Shown in pieces: positions 12,714-20,624 of a stretch of 64,000 nucleotides of DNA. The stretch lies in assembly GCA_041287245.1 (NCBI GenBank), contig JBEULP010000117.1, forward strand, positions 256,001-320,000, in the 5' to 3' direction. Position numbers and translations under genes: made by a program. The notes under the pieces were generated by a model, which saw only the letters and a list, made by a program, of their open reading frames with translations, did no database searches and was not told the origin of the DNA. Position 1 is the stretch's first letter, and the number at the start of each line of letters is the position of its first letter. This DNA comes from Infirmifilum sp. Lineage in GTDB: Archaea; Thermoproteota; Thermoprotei; Thermofilales; Thermofilaceae.

Positions 12714-14048
12714 GTGCCTGAATTCTCGGATTTGCTCTTAGAAGAAGTAAAAAATAAAAAAAGCGAAATTGAGCGGGTTCTCGCCGGTGGGGATTCAATC
12801 TTCAAGGAGTATGCAGAGCTTGTGAGTAAGAAGTGGAACCCGCTTCCAGCGCCAACCGTTGTACCCCGAAACATTTATGCTGTTGATAGTAGTAGCGGGG
12901 TAATCGAGCTTCGAGCAGGAGGCGTTCTCCTTGTTCTACGGAGTCTCGCTTTCTCAACACCACTGTCAACGCATAGAAAGCTTGGTGTTGAAGCTTTCTA
13001 TCCTCACAGCATACGCGACTTTGAAGAATACGTGAGGTTGGCTCGGGAGCACTACGAGCACAATGTCGCTTTAGACGCTTTAAACGAAAACCCTTCTTTT
13101 ATATTGCTTGACGGCTCCCTTTACGGAAGAATGATACATGTTCTGCGGGAGCTTGACCTTGAGGAGAGGGAGGATTTCCTCTTTGAGTACGTAAAAACTT
13201 ACAGTCAGTTTCTCAGGAAAGCCCTTGAGAATAAAGTGACAGTAATCGGGGTCAGCAAGGATTCAAGATCCACAATTTTCAAGGAGGAGTTACTGAAGGA
13301 GCAAGTGTTGCAGGAAGCCAGTAGGTTTGGGGCAGATACATCTGAATTGGCCGGGTTGTGGGGGAGTTTACGCCGGCGACCACGTGAGACAATAGAGAGT
13401 GTTAGACAAAAAGTACGGTCCGGCGAGCTCCCGGAAAGGATCTTAGAGTATTTTCTCCAGGCTAGGTCTCACATTCCTGATTCTAAAATCATCCTTCTTT
13501 CCGGGGTGGAGGAGGGATTCTCGACTCCTATCTTGTTGACTCTCTCTAAGATAATTGCTGGGCAATTTGACTTGGTGCTCAGTGAGGATGCTACCATGCA
13601 GATCCATAAATTGTCGAAGGTTTTTTCCAAAAGCTATGATGCTGACCCTGAGGAGTTTGAGGCGAGGGCTAGGGAGCTTATAGGGAACCTGAGAAGCTAT
13701 CCCCCGGTCGCGGTCTTCTATACTCTCTTGGGGCCGAATGATGACCCTATCAGAGTAGATGTCGTGAGCCATGAGCTTCAAGAGTTTTTGTTTTTAAAGG
13801 ATAGGCCGAGCCTTGAGTCTTTGCTTTTCATGCCCTCCATCATGGAAAAGGAAATGATCCCAATGACACTTTCTTTACTTCAAAGTCTCTATGCTGGGTA
13901 TAGAGGGTATAACGTGTTACTGCTCGAGGCGGATCGTAGGGTTAAAATCACTGTAGATACTTTGGAAACTTATAGGAAAATCATTATGAGGGAGCTTGAA
14001 CTTTTAGTTTTACATTCGAGGGGTGAGAGGCGTGTCCACTATCCTTAA
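12714..14048 (+). CDS. nurA: NurA-family 5'-3' nuclease
   Basis: YAVDSS, LLDGSL, GVSKDSRS, GYNVLLLEAD motifs; context. Confidence 0.88.
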   Translation: MPEFSDLLLEEVKNKKSEIERVLAGGDSIFKEYAELVSKKWNPLPAPTVVPRNIYAVDSSSGVIELRAGGVLLVLRSLAFSTPLSTHRKLGVEAFYPHSIRDFEEYVRLAREHYEHNVALDALNENPSFILLDGSLYGRMIHVLRELDLEEREDFLFEYVKTYSQFLRKALENKVTVIGVSKDSRSTIFKEELLKEQVLQEASRFGADTSELAGLWGSLRRRPRETIESVRQKVRSGELPERILEYFLQARSHIPDSKIILLSGVEEGFSTPILLTLSKIIAGQFDLVLSEDATMQIHKLSKVFSKSYDADPEEFEARARELIGNLRSYPPVAVFYTLLGPNDDPIRVDVVSHELQEFLFLKDRPSLESLLFMPSIMEKEMIPMTLSLLQSLYAGYRGYNVLLLEADRRVKITVDTLETYRKIIMRELELLVLHSRGERRVHYP

Positions 14049-15642
14049 ACCGATAGGTAGGATAGTCGAGAAGGCGACTCCGGAAAGTTTTGTCTTCGTG
14101 ACCAGCCGCGATGAACATCCTCAAAAATTCGAGTATGTGGTGGTTAAATCGAAAGAGTATGTAAACGGTGTTCTGCGGGAGGTTGATGTACTAGCCCAGG
14201 TCGTAGGTGTTGTTTCATCAAGTTCTGCCTTTAGCTCCGAATATGATTACGGCACGTTGGAGAGGGTTTATAGGGCTGGAATAGATGACTCGAACATTCT
14301 CTGCGAAGCTAGAACTCTCGGCTACCTCTTAGAGGAGAACGGGCGAATCACGGTTCTTTCACCACGTAGGGCACTTTTCCCGGGAAACACTGTTTACCTA
14401 GCCCCAGACCAGCTAGTTAGGGATTTTTTCTCTTATAACCCTGACGAAGGAATCCACATAGGCTTTTTGGTCTCAAGGCCTAATGTCCCTGTTTTCCTCA
14501 CGGTAAACGGCTTTAGAAGGCACGTGGCTGTGATTGCTCAGACAGGAGCTGGAAAATCTTACACCGTGGGTGTCATACTTGAAGAGCTTCTGCGCCTCGG
14601 AGGCACGGTTATTGTAATAGACCCTCACGCAGACTATGTTTTTCTCAGTAGGACGCGTGATATGAGAAGACATGATTTCTCCGACAGGATCCTTGTCTTT
14701 CGAAATCCAAATAGTACGGGGCGTTATTCGAGAGAACAGCTTGATAATGTCCACGAGCTTGTCTTCAGATTTTCAGAGCTTAGGGGCGATGATATTGCAA
14801 GAATAGCAGGGATTCCCGAAAAGTGGACAAACGTTAGGGGAGTCATTATTAAAGCTGTTAAGAATCTCCGAGCTAAGAATCCTGATTATAGGGCTTACGA
14901 CCTGATAAAAGAACTGGAAAACATGGCGGAAAGTGGCGAGAAGAAGTATCGTTTAGCGGCGCAGAGCGCAGTTAACCATCTGCGAAGAATCCTGAACTAC
15001 AGTGTATTCGGGGATAGGACAACTCCACTTAAAGATGAAATACTGAAACCTGGATATGTGTCAATCCTTGACCTTTCAGGGTTAAATGACTCGAGCCAAG
15101 ACTACATAGTTAGCAGGGTTCTCGAGGAGCTGTTCTCACTGAAATACGGGATGGAGTTCCCATACCCGGTCTTCGTGGTTATAGAGGAGGCTCACAGGTT
15201 TATCCCAAGCCAGAAACTTAGAAGGAGGACGATGTCCTCAGACATAATAAAGACAATCACAGCAGAGGGGAGAAAGTTTGGCGTTTTCTTGATACTGGTA
15301 ACTCAGAGGCCCAGTAAGATTGATTCTGACGCGTTAAGCCAGTGTAATAGCCAGATAATTTTACGTGTAACTAATCCCTTGGATCAAATAGCCGTTCAGG
15401 AGGCAAGCGAGAGGCTAGGTAAGGAGATGATGAGTGATCTCCCGGGTCTAAACGTGGGAGAGGCTGTAATAGTCGGTGAGCTTACACGCGTTCCAGTGAT
15501 CGTAAAGGTGCGCGAAAGGAGAACACGGGAAGGGGGTGCTGACATAGACCTTGTAGAAGAGTTACGGAAGACGCGTGAGGAGTTTATGCTTTCAGCATCG
15601 AAGACCCCGCCACCCTCTAAGGGCGTGTTTTCAGAGGTGTAG
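14023..15642 (+). CDS. herA: HerA DNA translocase/ATPase
   Basis: N-terminal HAS-barrel-like region, AQTGAGKS, VVIEEAH, EGRKFG, TQRPS; start may be GTG 14032. Confidence 0.92.
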   Translation: MRGVSTILKPIGRIVEKATPESFVFVTSRDEHPQKFEYVVVKSKEYVNGVLREVDVLAQVVGVVSSSSAFSSEYDYGTLERVYRAGIDDSNILCEARTLGYLLEENGRITVLSPRRALFPGNTVYLAPDQLVRDFFSYNPDEGIHIGFLVSRPNVPVFLTVNGFRRHVAVIAQTGAGKSYTVGVILEELLRLGGTVIVIDPHADYVFLSRTRDMRRHDFSDRILVFRNPNSTGRYSREQLDNVHELVFRFSELRGDDIARIAGIPEKWTNVRGVIIKAVKNLRAKNPDYRAYDLIKELENMAESGEKKYRLAAQSAVNHLRRILNYSVFGDRTTPLKDEILKPGYVSILDLSGLNDSSQDYIVSRVLEELFSLKYGMEFPYPVFVVIEEAHRFIPSQKLRRRTMSSDIIKTITAEGRKFGVFLILVTQRPSKIDSDALSQCNSQIILRVTNPLDQIAVQEASERLGKEMMSDLPGLNVGEAVIVGELTRVPVIVKVRERRTREGGADIDLVEELRKTREEFMLSASKTPPPSKGVFSEV

Positions 15643-15648
15643 AAACTG

Positions 15649-16815
15649 ATGGTTTTGAAAATAGTCCACACGGCTGATAATCACCTGGATCCAAAGCTCG
15701 GTTATCTGGGTTCAAAGGTTCAGGAGAGGAGGCAGGACTTCTACAAGTCGTTTCTTAGAGTTGTTGAGTATGTACTGGAGGTTAAACCTGATATTCTTCT
15801 AATCTCGGGGGATTTGTTTGACTCGATAAACCCGAGAAACCCAGTAAGGACGAATGTCCTGAAAGCCTTTCGGAGGATCTCCTCCGAAGGAGTTAGGATC
15901 TTCTTAATAGGAGGTAATCATGACATGCCGCGTTCTCAGGAGGAAGGCATGTCACCCCTCGGTGAGGTAGAGGCATCGGGTTACGCAACTTTTCTCTCAG
16001 ACCCGGCTGTCTTCCAGGTGGAGCACTTGAAGTTAGAGGGGTTTGATGTGGCGGTAGCAGGGCTCTCCTTTGACCCCACACTTGATACAAACGTAAACCC
16101 CCTGCGCGCTCGGAACCTCAGGATACCTATTGAGGGAGATATTAACATTGCGATGCTCCACTACAATTTTGCTGGATTTAGAATACCTCCCAGCTGGGCT
16201 GCGCCAACAATTACGCCTGAAGATATTCCCCCGGGGCTTCATTACCTGGCTTTGGGTCACCTGCACCAGTTCACGCACACTACCGTGAAGGGTGCTCACG
16301 TTGTATATCCCGGCAGTACTGAGCGTAGAAGCTTTAACGAGGAGAGCGACGAGAAGAAAGGCTTCGTCCACGCTGAAATCGACGGCTCGGGGGTCGTTCA
16401 TCTTAAGTTTATTGAGACTCCAACCCGCCCCATGAAAAGCTTCGAGCTGAGTTTGGATGATAAGATAGAAGACCCGATAGCCCATGTTGTGAGTTCAATT
16501 CCTTTTATAGACCCTAAAGCTCAAGTCAGAGTAAAGCTTAGGGGCTCCCTACCTCTTGAAAAGATCCGTCTATATAGTAAGGCTGAACTTGTAAAGAGGC
16601 TGGAAAATCGATTTTTCCACGTTACCATAGATGATTCGGAACTAAAATGTATCCTCCGGGAAGTTAGGATCTCAGGCGAAATAAGCTCCCCCCTGGACTC
16701 CTATAGGTCTTATTTCGAGGAAGCTCTTAAGAACGCCGTGGGAGAGGAAGCAGAAACCCTAAGGCTAGCGTTAGAGCTCGGAATGGCTGTCTTGCAGGAG
16801 GTGGGGGCATGGTAG
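15649..16815 (+). CDS. mre11: Mre11/SbcD-family nuclease
   Basis: HTADNHL, GDLFD, GNHD, LGHLH, YPGSTER. Confidence 0.93.
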   Translation: MVLKIVHTADNHLDPKLGYLGSKVQERRQDFYKSFLRVVEYVLEVKPDILLISGDLFDSINPRNPVRTNVLKAFRRISSEGVRIFLIGGNHDMPRSQEEGMSPLGEVEASGYATFLSDPAVFQVEHLKLEGFDVAVAGLSFDPTLDTNVNPLRARNLRIPIEGDINIAMLHYNFAGFRIPPSWAAPTITPEDIPPGLHYLALGHLHQFTHTTVKGAHVVYPGSTERRSFNEESDEKKGFVHAEIDGSGVVHLKFIETPTRPMKSFELSLDDKIEDPIAHVVSSIPFIDPKAQVRVKLRGSLPLEKIRLYSKAELVKRLENRFFHVTIDDSELKCILREVRISGEISSPLDSYRSYFEEALKNAVGEEAETLRLALELGMAVLQEVGAW

Positions 16816-19337
16816 TCATAAGAAGCCTTAAGGCGATAAACTTCAGGAGGCTAAACATCCCCGAGCCTCTCAACCTAGATAAGGGTATTTTCATTATCAG
16901 GGGTAGGAACGAGGCGGGAAAATCAACCTTTATAGAAGCAATCCTTTTCGGGCTCTACGGGGATCATCAAGTAATAGGGGATCTGCGAGGAAACCCCAGG
17001 CGAGGTTATGCTGAGGTCGTCAACCACAGGTCCCGTAAAGCCCTAGTGGAGGTTGAGTTCGAGGTAGACAATAGGAGGTACCGCGTGGCTCGAGAGCTGA
17101 TCAGGGATGGAGACTCGATAAAACAGGTTAATGCGAGGCTTGTTGAAATAACCGAGGGTTCTGAGAGGTTACTAGCAACAGGTGTCAAGCCTGTTAACGA
17201 CGAGGTGCATCGTATACTTAAGGTTTCATGGAAGGAGATGCTTACCACTAACATTGTTGCCCAAAAGGATCTGGAGCGCATTATTCATCTGAATAAGGGA
17301 GATAGGGAACAGATAATTAATCTCATGATGGGTCTAGAGAGCTACAACAGGGCTATTTCTAGCCTCGAAGATAGGAGAAGAGAGGCGAATAGAAAGAAGG
17401 AAGGACTGGCCGAGTTGTATGAAGAAAAAAGGAAAAGGGTAGAAGAGTTGAAACTTAAATTGGATGAACTCCCTGGATTACGTAGTGAACTTCAAAAGAT
17501 CGAGGAACAGCTTCCCGGACTCAGGGTTCGAGAGGAGCTTCTTAAGAAGGCCCTAGACTATCTCACAGCCCTCAGACAAGTGTTATTGAAGAAGAAAGAG
17601 TTGGAGCACCAGGAAGCCTCTCTCGAGGATCGTATTGTAGAAAAACAGGGTCAGCTCTCAGAGACTCAAAAACGCATTAATACGAACCTGAAGAGCTTAA
17701 GGGATATCGAATTGCTTTTGCCTCAGCTACTTGATAAAGATGGACATCTTAGGCAAGAATTACAGAAACTACGAGAGGAATATGACGCTAGAAGCCGACT
17801 TTTCAGCGATATTCAATCCTATAATGAGTATCGCACTAAGGAGTTGAAGAGGATTGAAGAGCTAGACCGTGAAATAAGGACAATAGAAGAGGAAGTCAGA
17901 CATCTGGAACAAAGCAAGGAGGAGATTACTCTACTCGAGAAAGAGAAATCAGCGCTTAAACAAGAGATTTCTACGCTGAAAATACCTTCATGGTCGAAGC
18001 TCGGCTTTCCTGCCCTTGGCGCCGGCGTTCTTGCCCTCCTTCTCATGCCTCAGACGGTCATTGTACCTATTGGCTTTCTTCTTGTAGGAGGGCTTCTCCT
18101 TTACCTTGGCTATAGAAAGAAAATAATGACGCAACAGGCGCTTCTAGCGAGAGCCAGCGCTGTCGAGGTTGAAATAAGCTCTAAGGCTGCTCTTGTCTCC
18201 AGATTAGACCGAGAAAAGAAAAGACTGGAGGATCTTGTAGCAGAAAAGGCAGAGCTTGAGAAGCACGTTAAGGATATCGAGGATAAAATAAGAGGGCTAG
18301 GTGGAAGAGAGTCTACGCTTCCCATAGAAGAAGCCCTTAATCTCTTAAAAAGGGAGTTAGAAAGGCAAAGGGAACAGATTGAGAGACTGGAAGGTGAAGA
18401 AAAAACGGTTCAGGCTAATATAGAGGTTTATTTAAAGGAGCAGAAAAGGCTCAAGGAGGAAACTGAGCAGTTACAGAAGAAGCTCTTGGAGATACAGCAA
18501 CAACTAAAGGAGCTGGAGGAGCGAAAAAGAAAGGTGGTCAGCGAGCTAAACGAGATTAAGATCCCCCCGCCGCCCTCCGAATTAAAGGCGAATGTTGAGT
18601 ATGTTGAGATTGCGTCAGAAGAGCAGGATTCCGAGTTGGTTGACCAGATATACGAGAAGCTTAACTGGGAGTACCATGATATTTCAGTTAAAAGAGCGGG
18701 ACTAGAGAAGGAAATAGGAAACCTCAGGAAGCGTATCGAGGAGACTGAGCTGCTTAGGCCCCAGCTAGAGCAGCTGCAAGGCGAGCTTGAAAAACTCGGT
18801 GGGGAATTGGCGGGATTAGAGAAGGAGTTAAAGGCTATAGATAAAGCCATCCGGGCTATGCAGGAGATCTCCCGTAAGAGACGCGAAGCCTTTGCGCCCA
18901 GTGTTGAGCAATATATAAGCTGGGTGATAGGCTATTTCACCAATGGTAGATACAAGGCAGTTAGGCTGCAACCTGACACGTATGACCTCGAGGTGTATGA
19001 TTCGGAAGCAGGTAGATGGCTCGTAAGAGATATATATTCCGGGGGGACTAATGATCAATTCCTCTTAGCCCTGAGAATCGCATTTACCTTGGCGCTCTTA
19101 CCTAGTGCGAAGGGCTCATATCCGAAGTTTCTCGTCCTGGACGAGCCTTTAGGTTCGTCTGACGCCGAGAGGCGAGAGAGGATAATAAGTTTCTTTACGG
19201 GCGAGCTTGTCAGGTTTTTCGACCAGGTTTTCCTTATAACTCACGTTGAGATAGAGGAGCCTCCCGGCGTTACAATTATTCAAATAGAAGACGGGAAGGT
19301 TGTCGGGGTTCACAGGTCTGTTCCAGAGGAATCATAG
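16809..19337 (+). CDS. rad50: Rad50/SbcC-like SMC ATPase with hydrophobic hairpin in place of zinc hook
   Basis: Walker A GRNEAGKST, signature YSGG, Walker B LVLDEP, ITH; long coiled coils; no Cys; hydrophobic aa ~395-435. Confidence 0.88.
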   Translation: MVVIRSLKAINFRRLNIPEPLNLDKGIFIIRGRNEAGKSTFIEAILFGLYGDHQVIGDLRGNPRRGYAEVVNHRSRKALVEVEFEVDNRRYRVARELIRDGDSIKQVNARLVEITEGSERLLATGVKPVNDEVHRILKVSWKEMLTTNIVAQKDLERIIHLNKGDREQIINLMMGLESYNRAISSLEDRRREANRKKEGLAELYEEKRKRVEELKLKLDELPGLRSELQKIEEQLPGLRVREELLKKALDYLTALRQVLLKKKELEHQEASLEDRIVEKQGQLSETQKRINTNLKSLRDIELLLPQLLDKDGHLRQELQKLREEYDARSRLFSDIQSYNEYRTKELKRIEELDREIRTIEEEVRHLEQSKEEITLLEKEKSALKQEISTLKIPSWSKLGFPALGAGVLALLLMPQTVIVPIGFLLVGGLLLYLGYRKKIMTQQALLARASAVEVEISSKAALVSRLDREKKRLEDLVAEKAELEKHVKDIEDKIRGLGGRESTLPIEEALNLLKRELERQREQIERLEGEEKTVQANIEVYLKEQKRLKEETEQLQKKLLEIQQQLKELEERKRKVVSELNEIKIPPPPSELKANVEYVEIASEEQDSELVDQIYEKLNWEYHDISVKRAGLEKEIGNLRKRIEETELLRPQLEQLQGELEKLGGELAGLEKELKAIDKAIRAMQEISRKRREAFAPSVEQYISWVIGYFTNGRYKAVRLQPDTYDLEVYDSEAGRWLVRDIYSGGTNDQFLLALRIAFTLALLPSAKGSYPKFLVLDEPLGSSDAERRERIISFFTGELVRFFDQVFLITHVEIEEPPGVTIIQIEDGKVVGVHRSVPEES

Positions 19338-19433
19338 GAAGATTTGATGAAGAACATATATGGCGTTATTCTGGAATCCCTTTTTTTCTCTTGGAGTAAA
19401 TTAAATAACATAGAGTATTTTCTCTCTAAATGT

Positions 19434-19883
19434 ATGAAGGTGGGGTTAGGATCTGACGACCTGTACCCCCTAGCGCTGTTTCTAGCTAAAGAGCTCGAGA
19501 AAAGAGGATTCGAAGTAGTTAAGGTCGGGGCTCTGGCAAAAGGCGCTCCATACCCCTGGCCAAGGGTTGGGTTGGAGGTAGGGAAGCTCGTAGCAGACGG
19601 GGTTGTTGATACTGGAATAGTAATCTGTTACACAGGAACCGGGGTGAGCATCGCAGCGAATAAGGTTAGGGGTGTGAGGGCTGCTCTGTGCCTGGACGCG
19701 AAAACAGCGAGGGGGGCTAGGCTTTGGAATGACGCCAATGTACTTGCCCTCAGTGCAAGGCTAGTTTCCGAAGAGCTAGCAAAGGAGATTCTTGATGAGT
19801 GGTTTAATACAAGGGAGATAGATCCCTCGGAGGTGGAGAATATAAACCTTCTCAAGAAAATGGATAGTGAGGGGAGTGTCTAG
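19434..19883 (+). CDS. RpiB/LacA/LacB-family sugar-phosphate isomerase
   Basis: GSDD, CYTGTGVSIAANKVRGVRAA, NDANVL; ATG 19434 about 27 nt after TTAAATA. Confidence 0.9.
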   Translation: MKVGLGSDDLYPLALFLAKELEKRGFEVVKVGALAKGAPYPWPRVGLEVGKLVADGVVDTGIVICYTGTGVSIAANKVRGVRAALCLDAKTARGARLWNDANVLALSARLVSEELAKEILDEWFNTREIDPSEVENINLLKKMDSEGSV

Positions 19884-20624
19884 GTGTTTAGGGGTCTTGT
19901 AAAGGACGAGAGAAGTCTATATGATGAATTCGAGGAGAAAACACCATATTGGGACTATAGAACGGACAACTTCGCCTCGATTACTTTGCGCGACAGCAAG
20001 GCAGTACTCTGCTCCGGCCCCACCGAAGCTCTCTACTACTCTAACGCTGAAATCTCTGACGGGAGATTCGACGACCTCCCGTGGCAGATGAAAACCTTCG
20101 AGGCAAAGGTTAGAATGACGGGGACGCACTTTGGCTCTGCCGGGTGGGGCTTCTGGAACCACTCGATGCAGTTCAATCTAAGCCGGCCTATCTGGTTTAT
20201 ACACCTACAAAGCCGTGGACCATACCTTTTCCAAGGGTTTTTTGCCCAGGCGGTGACGGGTTTTGTTCCCATTAAGATTTACAGGGGTTCACTAACAGCT
20301 CCTAGTTTGCTATCCAGGCTTACACGAGGAGCCATCGGTGTTACAATATATACCCATAAGCCTGTCCTTCAGGAGCTTGATCTGAGTTCCTGGCACGTAT
20401 ACAAGATAGAGTGGCAAGCAGATAGTGCAGCCTTTTACATTGACGGCAACCTCGTTGCAAAAATACCCATCCGCGACTCCAACTTTAAGGCTCGGGCTGA
20501 CGTTTGGATCGATAATGCCGTTTTCGGCTACAACCCTAAGGATGCAGGCCAAGTGTACAGGCACCTTACACAGGAAAACAGGGAAAAGAATTGCCTAGAG
20601 GTAGATTACATAAAGATTTTCTAG
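19884..20624 (+). CDS. GH16/concanavalin-fold-like protein, catalytic motif not evident
   Basis: FEAKVR, GWGFW, WHVYKIEWQADSAAFYIDG, EVDYIKI. Confidence 0.55.
   Translation: MFRGLVKDERSLYDEFEEKTPYWDYRTDNFASITLRDSKAVLCSGPTEALYYSNAEISDGRFDDLPWQMKTFEAKVRMTGTHFGSAGWGFWNHSMQFNLSRPIWFIHLQSRGPYLFQGFFAQAVTGFVPIKIYRGSLTAPSLLSRLTRGAIGVTIYTHKPVLQELDLSSWHVYKIEWQADSAAFYIDGNLVAKIPIRDSNFKARADVWIDNAVFGYNPKDAGQVYRHLTQENREKNCLEVDYIKIF

Follow-up and report, generated by a model that had tools for sequence, protein, structure and literature searches.

A hook-less archaeal Rad50 with a hydrophobic apex hairpin that is predicted to be membrane-embedded

Results

A nurA-herA-mre11-rad50 operon encodes a Rad50 without a hook

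We analyzed 64,000 nucleotides of an Infirmifilum sp. genome (Thermofilales; GCA_041287245.1, contig JBEULP010000117.1, positions 256,001 to 320,000), hereafter the window, which carries an operon whose Rad50 lacks the zinc hook and has at its coiled-coil apex an uncharged two-helix hairpin that is predicted to lie in the membrane. The nurA-herA-mre11-rad50 operon is intact, with all four genes on one strand and overlapping or nearly abutting. The first gene, nurA (12714..14048, +), encodes a 5'-3' nuclease of 444 amino acids (aa; Pfam NurA, 71 bits, above the cut-off), and herA (14023..15642, +) a 539-aa helicase/translocase (Pfam DUF87, 142 bits) of a lineage that travels with the hairpin Rad50. 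The Mre11/SbcD-type nuclease (15649..16815, +; 388 aa; NCBIfam sbcD, above the cut-off) has all its metal-binding motifs: ADNHL, GDLFD, GNHD, LHYN, and GHLH. Last comes rad50 (16809..19337, +), whose start overlaps the mre11 stop and whose frame, free of internal stops, encodes an 842-aa Rad50/SbcE-like ABC (ATP-binding cassette) ATPase. With mre11, herA, and nurA upstream, the gene shows the coupling to Mre11 that marks Rad50 and SbcC.

The ATPase head is that of a canonical Rad50/SbcC, with Walker A, Q-loop, signature, Walker B, D-loop, and H-loop. Walker A (GRNEAGKS, aa 32-39; 16902..16925, +) has the NE form that accompanies the hairpin, and the C-terminal head (19035..19244, +) holds the signature YSGG (743-746), Walker B VLDEP (776-780), D785 of the D-loop, and H812 of the H-loop. 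In an alignment of 57 homologs, G32, N34, E35, G37, K38, and S39 are invariant, as are S744-G746, L777-P780, D785, and H812. The best PDB matches of the family profile, by sequence, are archaeal Rad50 heads (E 1e-52). The best score against a curated Rad50/SbcC equivalog is 130 bits against a cut-off of 700, and the hook-type relatives are under the cut-offs as well, so that the score is of little weight. The nearest named homologs, at 40-52% identity, come from Infirmifilum and Thermofilum, in line with the Thermofilaceae; close relatives of the protein occur in cultured Thermofilum pendens, T. adornatum, and Infirmifilum.

Between the two halves of the head lies a long coiled coil, with helices at aa 177-388 and 418-710 in an AlphaFold model built from the 57-homolog alignment (mean predicted local distance difference test score, pLDDT, 83.6; predicted template modelling score, pTM, 0.47), from which we used the secondary structure and the confidence. 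The outgoing arm (aa 177-388; 17337..17972, +) is modelled as helices 177-219, 221-232, and 242-388, and at 0.15 nm per residue we infer a length of about 30 nm. The returning arm (aa 436-710; 18114..18938, +) has a proline-rich break at aa 581-607, and P586 in this arm is nearly invariant among the 57 homologs.

A first-pass annotation of the window had described the protein as free of cysteine and unable to form a CxxC hook, and the checked translation indeed has 0 Cys in 842 aa. By itself this is weak evidence, because 3 of the 51 open frames of at least 700 aa in the same genome are also Cys-free; the key is the absent CxxC and what replaces it. Of the Pfam models named in that annotation, AAA_23 matches (61 bits) and Rad50_zn_hook does not; AAA_27 reaches 18.4 bits, short of its cut-off of 22. 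The hook model (PF04423) has no match anywhere in the source genome (G000; completeness 99.99%, contamination 5%), which yields a single Mre11 match. Its only other SMC-like match is an 804-aa frame with CPVC (G000:C49). We rejected this frame as a hidden hook-type Rad50: its best score, 263 bits, is against the arcadin-4 model (under the cut-off), crenactin is two genes away, and no mre11 adjoins it. The frame (L051:3986-6394, -) belongs to the crenactin operon, with crenactin at L051:7312-8592 (-); arcadin-4-like genes also adjoin crenactin in G012, G026, G028, and G029.

A hydrophobic hairpin occupies the apex

At 0.49 of the protein's length, where the first-pass annotation had pointed to a hydrophobic midpoint, lie the 38 residues of aa 398-435 (18000..18113, +), LGFPALGAGVLALLLMPQTVIVPIGFLLVGGLLLYLGY, preceded by K391, W395, and K397 and followed by RKK. 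Both helices had been quoted correctly, with QT as the linker. This is the only run of at least 15 residues without Asp, Glu, Lys, or Arg in the protein, and its best 38-residue Kyte-Doolittle (KD) mean, 1.84, was matched in 14 of 10,000 shuffles of the protein. In the AlphaFold model, residues 394-412 form the first helix and 413-417 the turn; the second helix begins at 418 and continues into the return arm (apex pLDDT 75-87). The hydrophobic moments of the hairpin helices are 0.13 and 0.11, compared to 0.35 for the protein's own coiled coil, and fall inside the range of 0.02-0.26 given by helices of two very hydrophobic open reading frames of the window.

Among the 57 homologs, the hairpin columns show about the same variability as those of the arms (mean share of the top residue 0.37 vs 0.38), are hydrophobic nearly throughout (mean KD +2.1), and have almost no charge over some 35 columns; a proline turn marks the middle of the hairpin (P414 in 33 of 53). 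We also took the 150 best representatives of a set clustered at 50% identity and dropped 30 by a length and motif filter, leaving 120 full-length representatives, in which the median uncharged run is 39 residues. The two hairpin flanks in these proteins have K+R to D+E ratios of 307:64 and 260:68, compared to 9170:11202 in the arms, which are slightly acidic.

On hydropathy scales and moments, the apex fits a membrane hairpin, with two uncharged, non-amphipathic helices and basic flanks. By the positive-inside rule, such a pattern is that of a pair of membrane helices whose ends are both cytoplasmic. Because the apex is hydrophobic, uncharged, non-amphipathic, and flanked by Lys and Arg, we read it as two membrane helices, and we predict that the hairpin is very probably embedded in the cytoplasmic membrane. 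The residue make-up of the segment, the geometry of its helices, and the charge on its flanks fit the membrane reading proposed from the initial look at the sequence, which is a prediction.

The hairpin marks a family and is shared with SbcE

To ask how far the hairpin reaches, we scored 117 homologs for a 36-residue window of mean KD >1.3 between the heads. The hairpin is present in 112; four proteins with CxxC have none, and one is a fragment. Among the 120 representatives, 115 have the hairpin, 118 have the NE Walker A, and none (0/120) has a central CxxC; the position of the hairpin tracks protein length (r 0.97), which ranges between 618 and 1345 aa. Hairpin and hook never occur together in one protein. 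As a control, the C-terminal head alone was searched in 401 genomes of the phylum, giving 30 matches, and 10 of the 17 matches outside the order were fetched. The hairpin is present in seven strong matches and a CPTC hook in the two weakest; the remaining match is a fragment of 99 aa. On these sequences, the head-only query is predictive of the hairpin trait.

Named records place the family in Bathyarchaeia, Nitrososphaeria, Asgard archaea, Chloroflexota, Dictyoglomota, Caldisericota, and Armatimonadota, and outside the Thermofilales its loci lie mostly downstream of mre11, often with nurA-herA. An Atlas search with aa 340-500 returned unnamed clusters and generic helical matches alone. A form of only 708 aa (L140:3135-5300, P0007-P0011), which is some 130 aa shorter and keeps its hairpin at mid-length, comes from a record labelled Nitrososphaerota and is nested among Thermofilaceae operons. 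We also saw two remnants of hairpin-type rad50, possibly recent losses: a 99-aa C-terminal fragment in a locus without mre11 (L190:7871-8167, G049) and a copy with four stops (G269:C4:42122-42535).

A likeness to bacterial YhaN/SbcE had been pointed out in the first-pass annotation, and it held up. We retrieved a Bacillus locus by a primer printed in PMC2811018; its SbcE protein (P0348), from the B. subtilis group, is 98% identical to P0350, which NCBI names SbcE, and has GLNEAGKT and a Lys-flanked hydrophobic hairpin at mid-length. A head tree of 55 rows, built under LG+C20 from 320 columns that leave out the apex, joins 34 rows, comprising all the hairpin proteins including SbcE, in one clade (99/95) with no hook protein inside, and a 153-row FastTree concurs (support 0.944). 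The hairpin branch, judged by these heads, appears to take in B. subtilis SbcE. The window protein shares with SbcE-like proteins the lack of CxxC, a hydrophobic center with a proline between coiled coils, and GxNE[AS]GK[ST]. Six deeper-branching hairpin relatives match AAA_27 at 37-48 bits over nearly the whole model. In the portion of PMC2811018 available, the center of SbcE is described as a unique hydrophobic, insoluble domain without CxxC, and the word transmembrane does not appear; in E. coli, neither SbcE nor the central domain by itself was soluble. SbcE is reported there to act in break repair and in transformation.

Hairpin and hook operons do not co-occur in the Thermofilales genomes

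In 41 Thermofilales genomes, many of them incomplete assemblies, 21 have the hairpin operon, 14 a hook-type operon (CPxC), 2 a third, distant type, and 4 no Mre11 that we found. Hairpin and hook-type operons occur together in 0 of the 41. The hairpin was seen directly in 20 of the 21 genomes; in G020 the gene is cut by the contig end and was assigned by similarity. Exactly one Mre11 match was found in each of 37 genomes. PF04423, a model that misses some hooks, matches in 15 genomes, none of them among the 21.

The two operon types share the gene order nurA-herA-mre11-rad50 in the relatives examined, and all the operon partners differ in lineage between them. A joint clade of hairpin Rad50 and Thermofilales hook Rad50 is rejected by the approximately unbiased test (p-AU 1e-115). 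We rejected a local swap of the apex in a resident Rad50, since Mre11, HerA, and the Rad50 heads alike come from a different lineage.

On a species tree of RNA polymerase (39 genomes, with G010 and G028 left out and 34 labelled; FastTree), the operon type needs at least five changes. The operon tree divides the genus of the window (p-AU 2e-50), draws G011 away from its family (p-AU 1.5e-6), and places the Nitrososphaerota-labelled record among the window's kin, and the HerA, Mre11, and Rad50-head trees are broadly alike in shape. Because the gene trees conflict with the species tree and agree among HerA, Mre11, and Rad50, they support transfer of the operon as a unit. Both operon types may also have coexisted in an ancestor and been lost reciprocally, given the second Mre11 seen in G065 and G200 (below). 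We considered whether one operon took over the chromosomal position of the other, and set this idea aside as suggestive at most. It was based on a Roadblock gene that, among hairpin genomes, directly follows rad50 in G001 alone and is shared by hook-type G016 and G019; G001 has three Roadblock copies, and the gene lies elsewhere in six other genomes of its genus.

Several further observations concern these loci. Roadblock/LC7 genes at or near the 3' end of rad50 are L031:11033-11461 in G001 and L058:3319-3708, L059:4661-5080, and L042:4167-4565 in hook-type G016, G019, and G009. The third, distant herA-mre11-rad50 type (family f5) is at L050:5612-9419 in G026 and at L107:3384-6915 and L106:2-1582 in G033, which also has a CPLC-bearing Rad50 fragment on a separate contig. 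G012 (92% complete, 10 contigs) gave no Mre11 or Rad50 match; the congeneric G017 has the hairpin operon.

In the window, an RpiB sugar-phosphate isomerase and a GH16-like protein lie 3' of rad50 (19344-20624, +), and the same pair comes after rad50 in G005, G006, and G007. Elsewhere in the source genome are two further nurA-herA pairs without mre11 or rad50, at L186:3988-6998 (-) (G000:C21), with a DEAD/DEAH helicase following it, and at L187:1551-4254 (+) (G000:C10); most Thermofilales genomes have 2-3 NurA matches. A 347-aa HerA-family frame at L188:4149-5189 (+) (G000:C61) scores best as the DNA-translocating ATPase CedD (125 bits, under the cut-off).

Discussion

A Rad50 proposed to be anchored by its apex

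We propose that the window encodes a membrane-hairpin Rad50 of a NurA-HerA-Mre11-Rad50 operon, with heads held on stalks some 30 nm into the cytoplasm, where it would likely carry out ordinary break resection; taken as a whole, we regard this proposal as probable. The hook of the canonical complex links its arms to each other, and the complex passes from ring to rod on a DNA end, as reported in PMC10418313. Here, the hairpin would insert in the membrane, as a span or as a wedge, with both arms cytoplasmic. The membrane, with or without contact between hairpins, would hold both apices of Mre11(2)Rad50(2). It would thereby close the ring in the manner of the hook, since two arms fixed in a membrane leave DNA no way through. 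ATP and a DNA end would then zip the arms into a rod-shaped cutting state, after which HerA-NurA would resect. The operon would have spread in the Thermofilales partly by horizontal transfer, displacing the hook-type operon. In Sulfolobus islandicus, nurA, herA, mre11, and rad50 are all reported to be essential (PMC4351679). The insolubility of SbcE in E. coli (PMC2811018) and the exchange of the hook for a MukB hinge in yeast (PMC6969161) also count in favor of the proposal.

Several observations weigh against this proposal. The hairpin helices are short, at 18-19 residues; because the median uncharged run is 39 residues, each may make a narrow span of the membrane or form a wedge within it. 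Small residues are conserved at 406 (56/57) and 427 (51/57), which shows close packing of the helices and suits a protein interface equally well. The profile behind the 120 representatives includes the hairpin and hence favors carriers, and the homologs are related, so that counts among them are not independent. Five clade members (L169:3809-7603, L160:3803-7564, P0323, P0331, and P0339) have neither a strong hairpin nor CxxC; the apex looks like a pair of amphipathic helices in three of them and is another small insert in the other two. The hairpin is thus dispensable within the clade, and these may be further kinds of apex. SbcE falls in a separate, long-branched subclade (100/100), and for this reason it is, on the head tree, best taken as a sister lineage rather than an orthologue, with a placement less sure than 99/95 implies. 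SbcE-YFP is reported to form foci on nucleoids and, in competent cells, at the poles, with no membrane-wide signal described in the part of PMC2811018 available. Finally, of five other archaea tested, two (G065, G200) combine the hairpin operon with a second, more canonical Mre11, so the operon does not work alone everywhere; a weak second Mre11 match was seen in G125, and a single Mre11 in G086 and G159. A second SbcD-like gene is present in 3 of 5 bacterial genomes.

Some of these points would suit a soluble, metal-free dimerization module, in which two apices form a hydrophobic four-helix bundle in the cytoplasm with no membrane involved. In a four-helix bundle, about half of each helix faces water, which normally selects for polar residues. 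The hairpin helices are instead hydrophobic all round (moment 0.11-0.13), with some 35 nearly uncharged columns, and their free sequence variation and Lys/Arg-rich flanks against acidic arms also speak against such a bundle. On the other side, the conserved small residues, the amphipathic or other apices of the five clade members, and the SbcE foci on nucleoids would fit it; the hook can be replaced in yeast by the MukB hinge, an unrelated dimer module (PMC6969161), and some Lamassu LmuB proteins are reported to have no hook at all (PMC12663957). We consider a soluble module quite improbable.

The second Mre11 of G065 and G200 would suit another possibility, that the hairpin is membrane-embedded and stations the nuclease where outside DNA enters (by uptake, cell-to-cell exchange, or virus entry), rather than serving general repair. 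In competent B. subtilis, SbcE is reported to move to the pole where DNA is taken up, and transformation to fall 20-fold when SbcE is lost (PMC2811018); the operon acts like mobile accessory DNA; and the source genome has the CedD-like ATPase fragment, under the cut-off. Set against a station for incoming DNA are the action of SbcE in break repair as well (PMC2811018) and the lack of any uptake gene among the annotated neighbors in the window. In addition, the hairpin operon holds the sole Mre11 found in the 21 Thermofilales genomes and in 5 of 5 Asgard assemblies (completeness unknown), and it therefore presumably has a housekeeping role there. A role confined to DNA entry seems unlikely to us.

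The membrane hairpin could also be no more than a structural tether for chromosome loci or replication forks, with break resection independent of it. Rad50 is an SMC-like DNA binder, and T. adornatum is reported to lack a canonical SMC and to align its chromosome arms by an unknown route (PMC11946384). Such a tether is at odds with the grouping of the gene with mre11, herA, and nurA in the order of the hook-type operon, and the same genome has a separate SMC-like protein, the arcadin-4 candidate; we find this explanation very hard to credit.

What a membrane-anchored Rad50 would mean

Hook-less SbcE with its hydrophobic center has been known since 2009, and the window protein is a variant of this known kind. 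What our analysis adds is the tree link to SbcE, the one-or-other distribution over 41 genomes, and the support for transfer of the operon in one piece. In the literature searched, whose coverage does not extend to subscription journals or database topology notes, we found no membrane-anchor reading of a hairpin Rad50 or SbcE and no account of archaeal members. A look-up by term found no mention of a membrane-anchored Rad50 in PMC12663957, PMC9389158, and bioRxiv 10.1101/2024.01.07.573240. Nor did the literature confirm a link to the very thin cells of Thermofilum (about 0.15-0.35 micrometres wide), to which we therefore give no weight.

Returning to the membrane-anchored Rad50, we lean slightly towards a fuller reading, in which a lipid-embedded hairpin is a third SMC/Rad50 apex beside the hinge and the zinc hook and the membrane closes the ring. 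If so, the sole Mre11-Rad50 of Thermofilum and its kin, and probably of some Asgard archaea, would be an integral membrane complex with resection confined to the envelope; horizontal transfer would repeatedly have put this operon in place of the hook-type one; and SbcE of B. subtilis would be an unrecognized, genetically tractable bacterial member. In the literature covered, Rad50 is described as a soluble complex, with a zinc hook linking its arms. A natural membrane-anchored Rad50, the sole one seen in entire archaeal genera, would test what the apex does, whether specific dimer contact or mere topological closure, and would give break resection a fixed place in the cell. Membrane anchoring could also explain why the 'unique central domain' of B. 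subtilis SbcE is insoluble.

Comparison with known systems

Like the canonical archaeal operons of Sulfolobus, Pyrococcus, and the hook-type Thermofilales, the window has ABC head motifs, a long antiparallel coiled coil, and the same four genes; unlike them, its Rad50 has no CPxC hook. The distance extends to the partners, with 85 bits against the Rad50_Sulf model (368 for hook-type relatives), 83 against Mre11_Sulfo (280 for hook-type relatives), and 184 against HerA_Thermprot (524 for a hook-type relative).

Arcadin-4 (Rkd4) and ASRP/ClsN also combine an SMC-like head with a coiled coil, and an arcadin-4-like gene is present in the same genome. That candidate is another gene, which has CPVC and lies outside the hairpin clade in the head tree; the window protein itself scores 29 bits against the Rkd4 model. 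ASRP is reported to carry CxxC (PMC9389158).

Neither the window protein nor SbcE has CxxC, both have the NE Walker A (GRNEAGKS here, GLNEAGKT in SbcE) and a hydrophobic mid-length stretch flanked by Lys or Arg, and the SbcE gene (yhaN) lies directly downstream of an SbcD-like nuclease (SbcF/YhaO); the C-terminal profile match has E 5e-45 at 18% identity. The two differ in that SbcE is an accessory beside SbcCD, has the signature SQG where the window protein has SGG, and has no nurA-herA among the adjoining open reading frames. AAA_27 gives SbcE 98 bits, compared to 18.4 bits over the P-loop only in the window protein.

In overall design, the protein recalls bacterial dynamin-like proteins, atlastin, and mitofusin, which have an NTPase head, a helical stalk, and a short membrane-inserting hairpin at the far tip. 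These are GTPases that remodel membranes, and the likeness is an architectural analogy for which we claim no homology.

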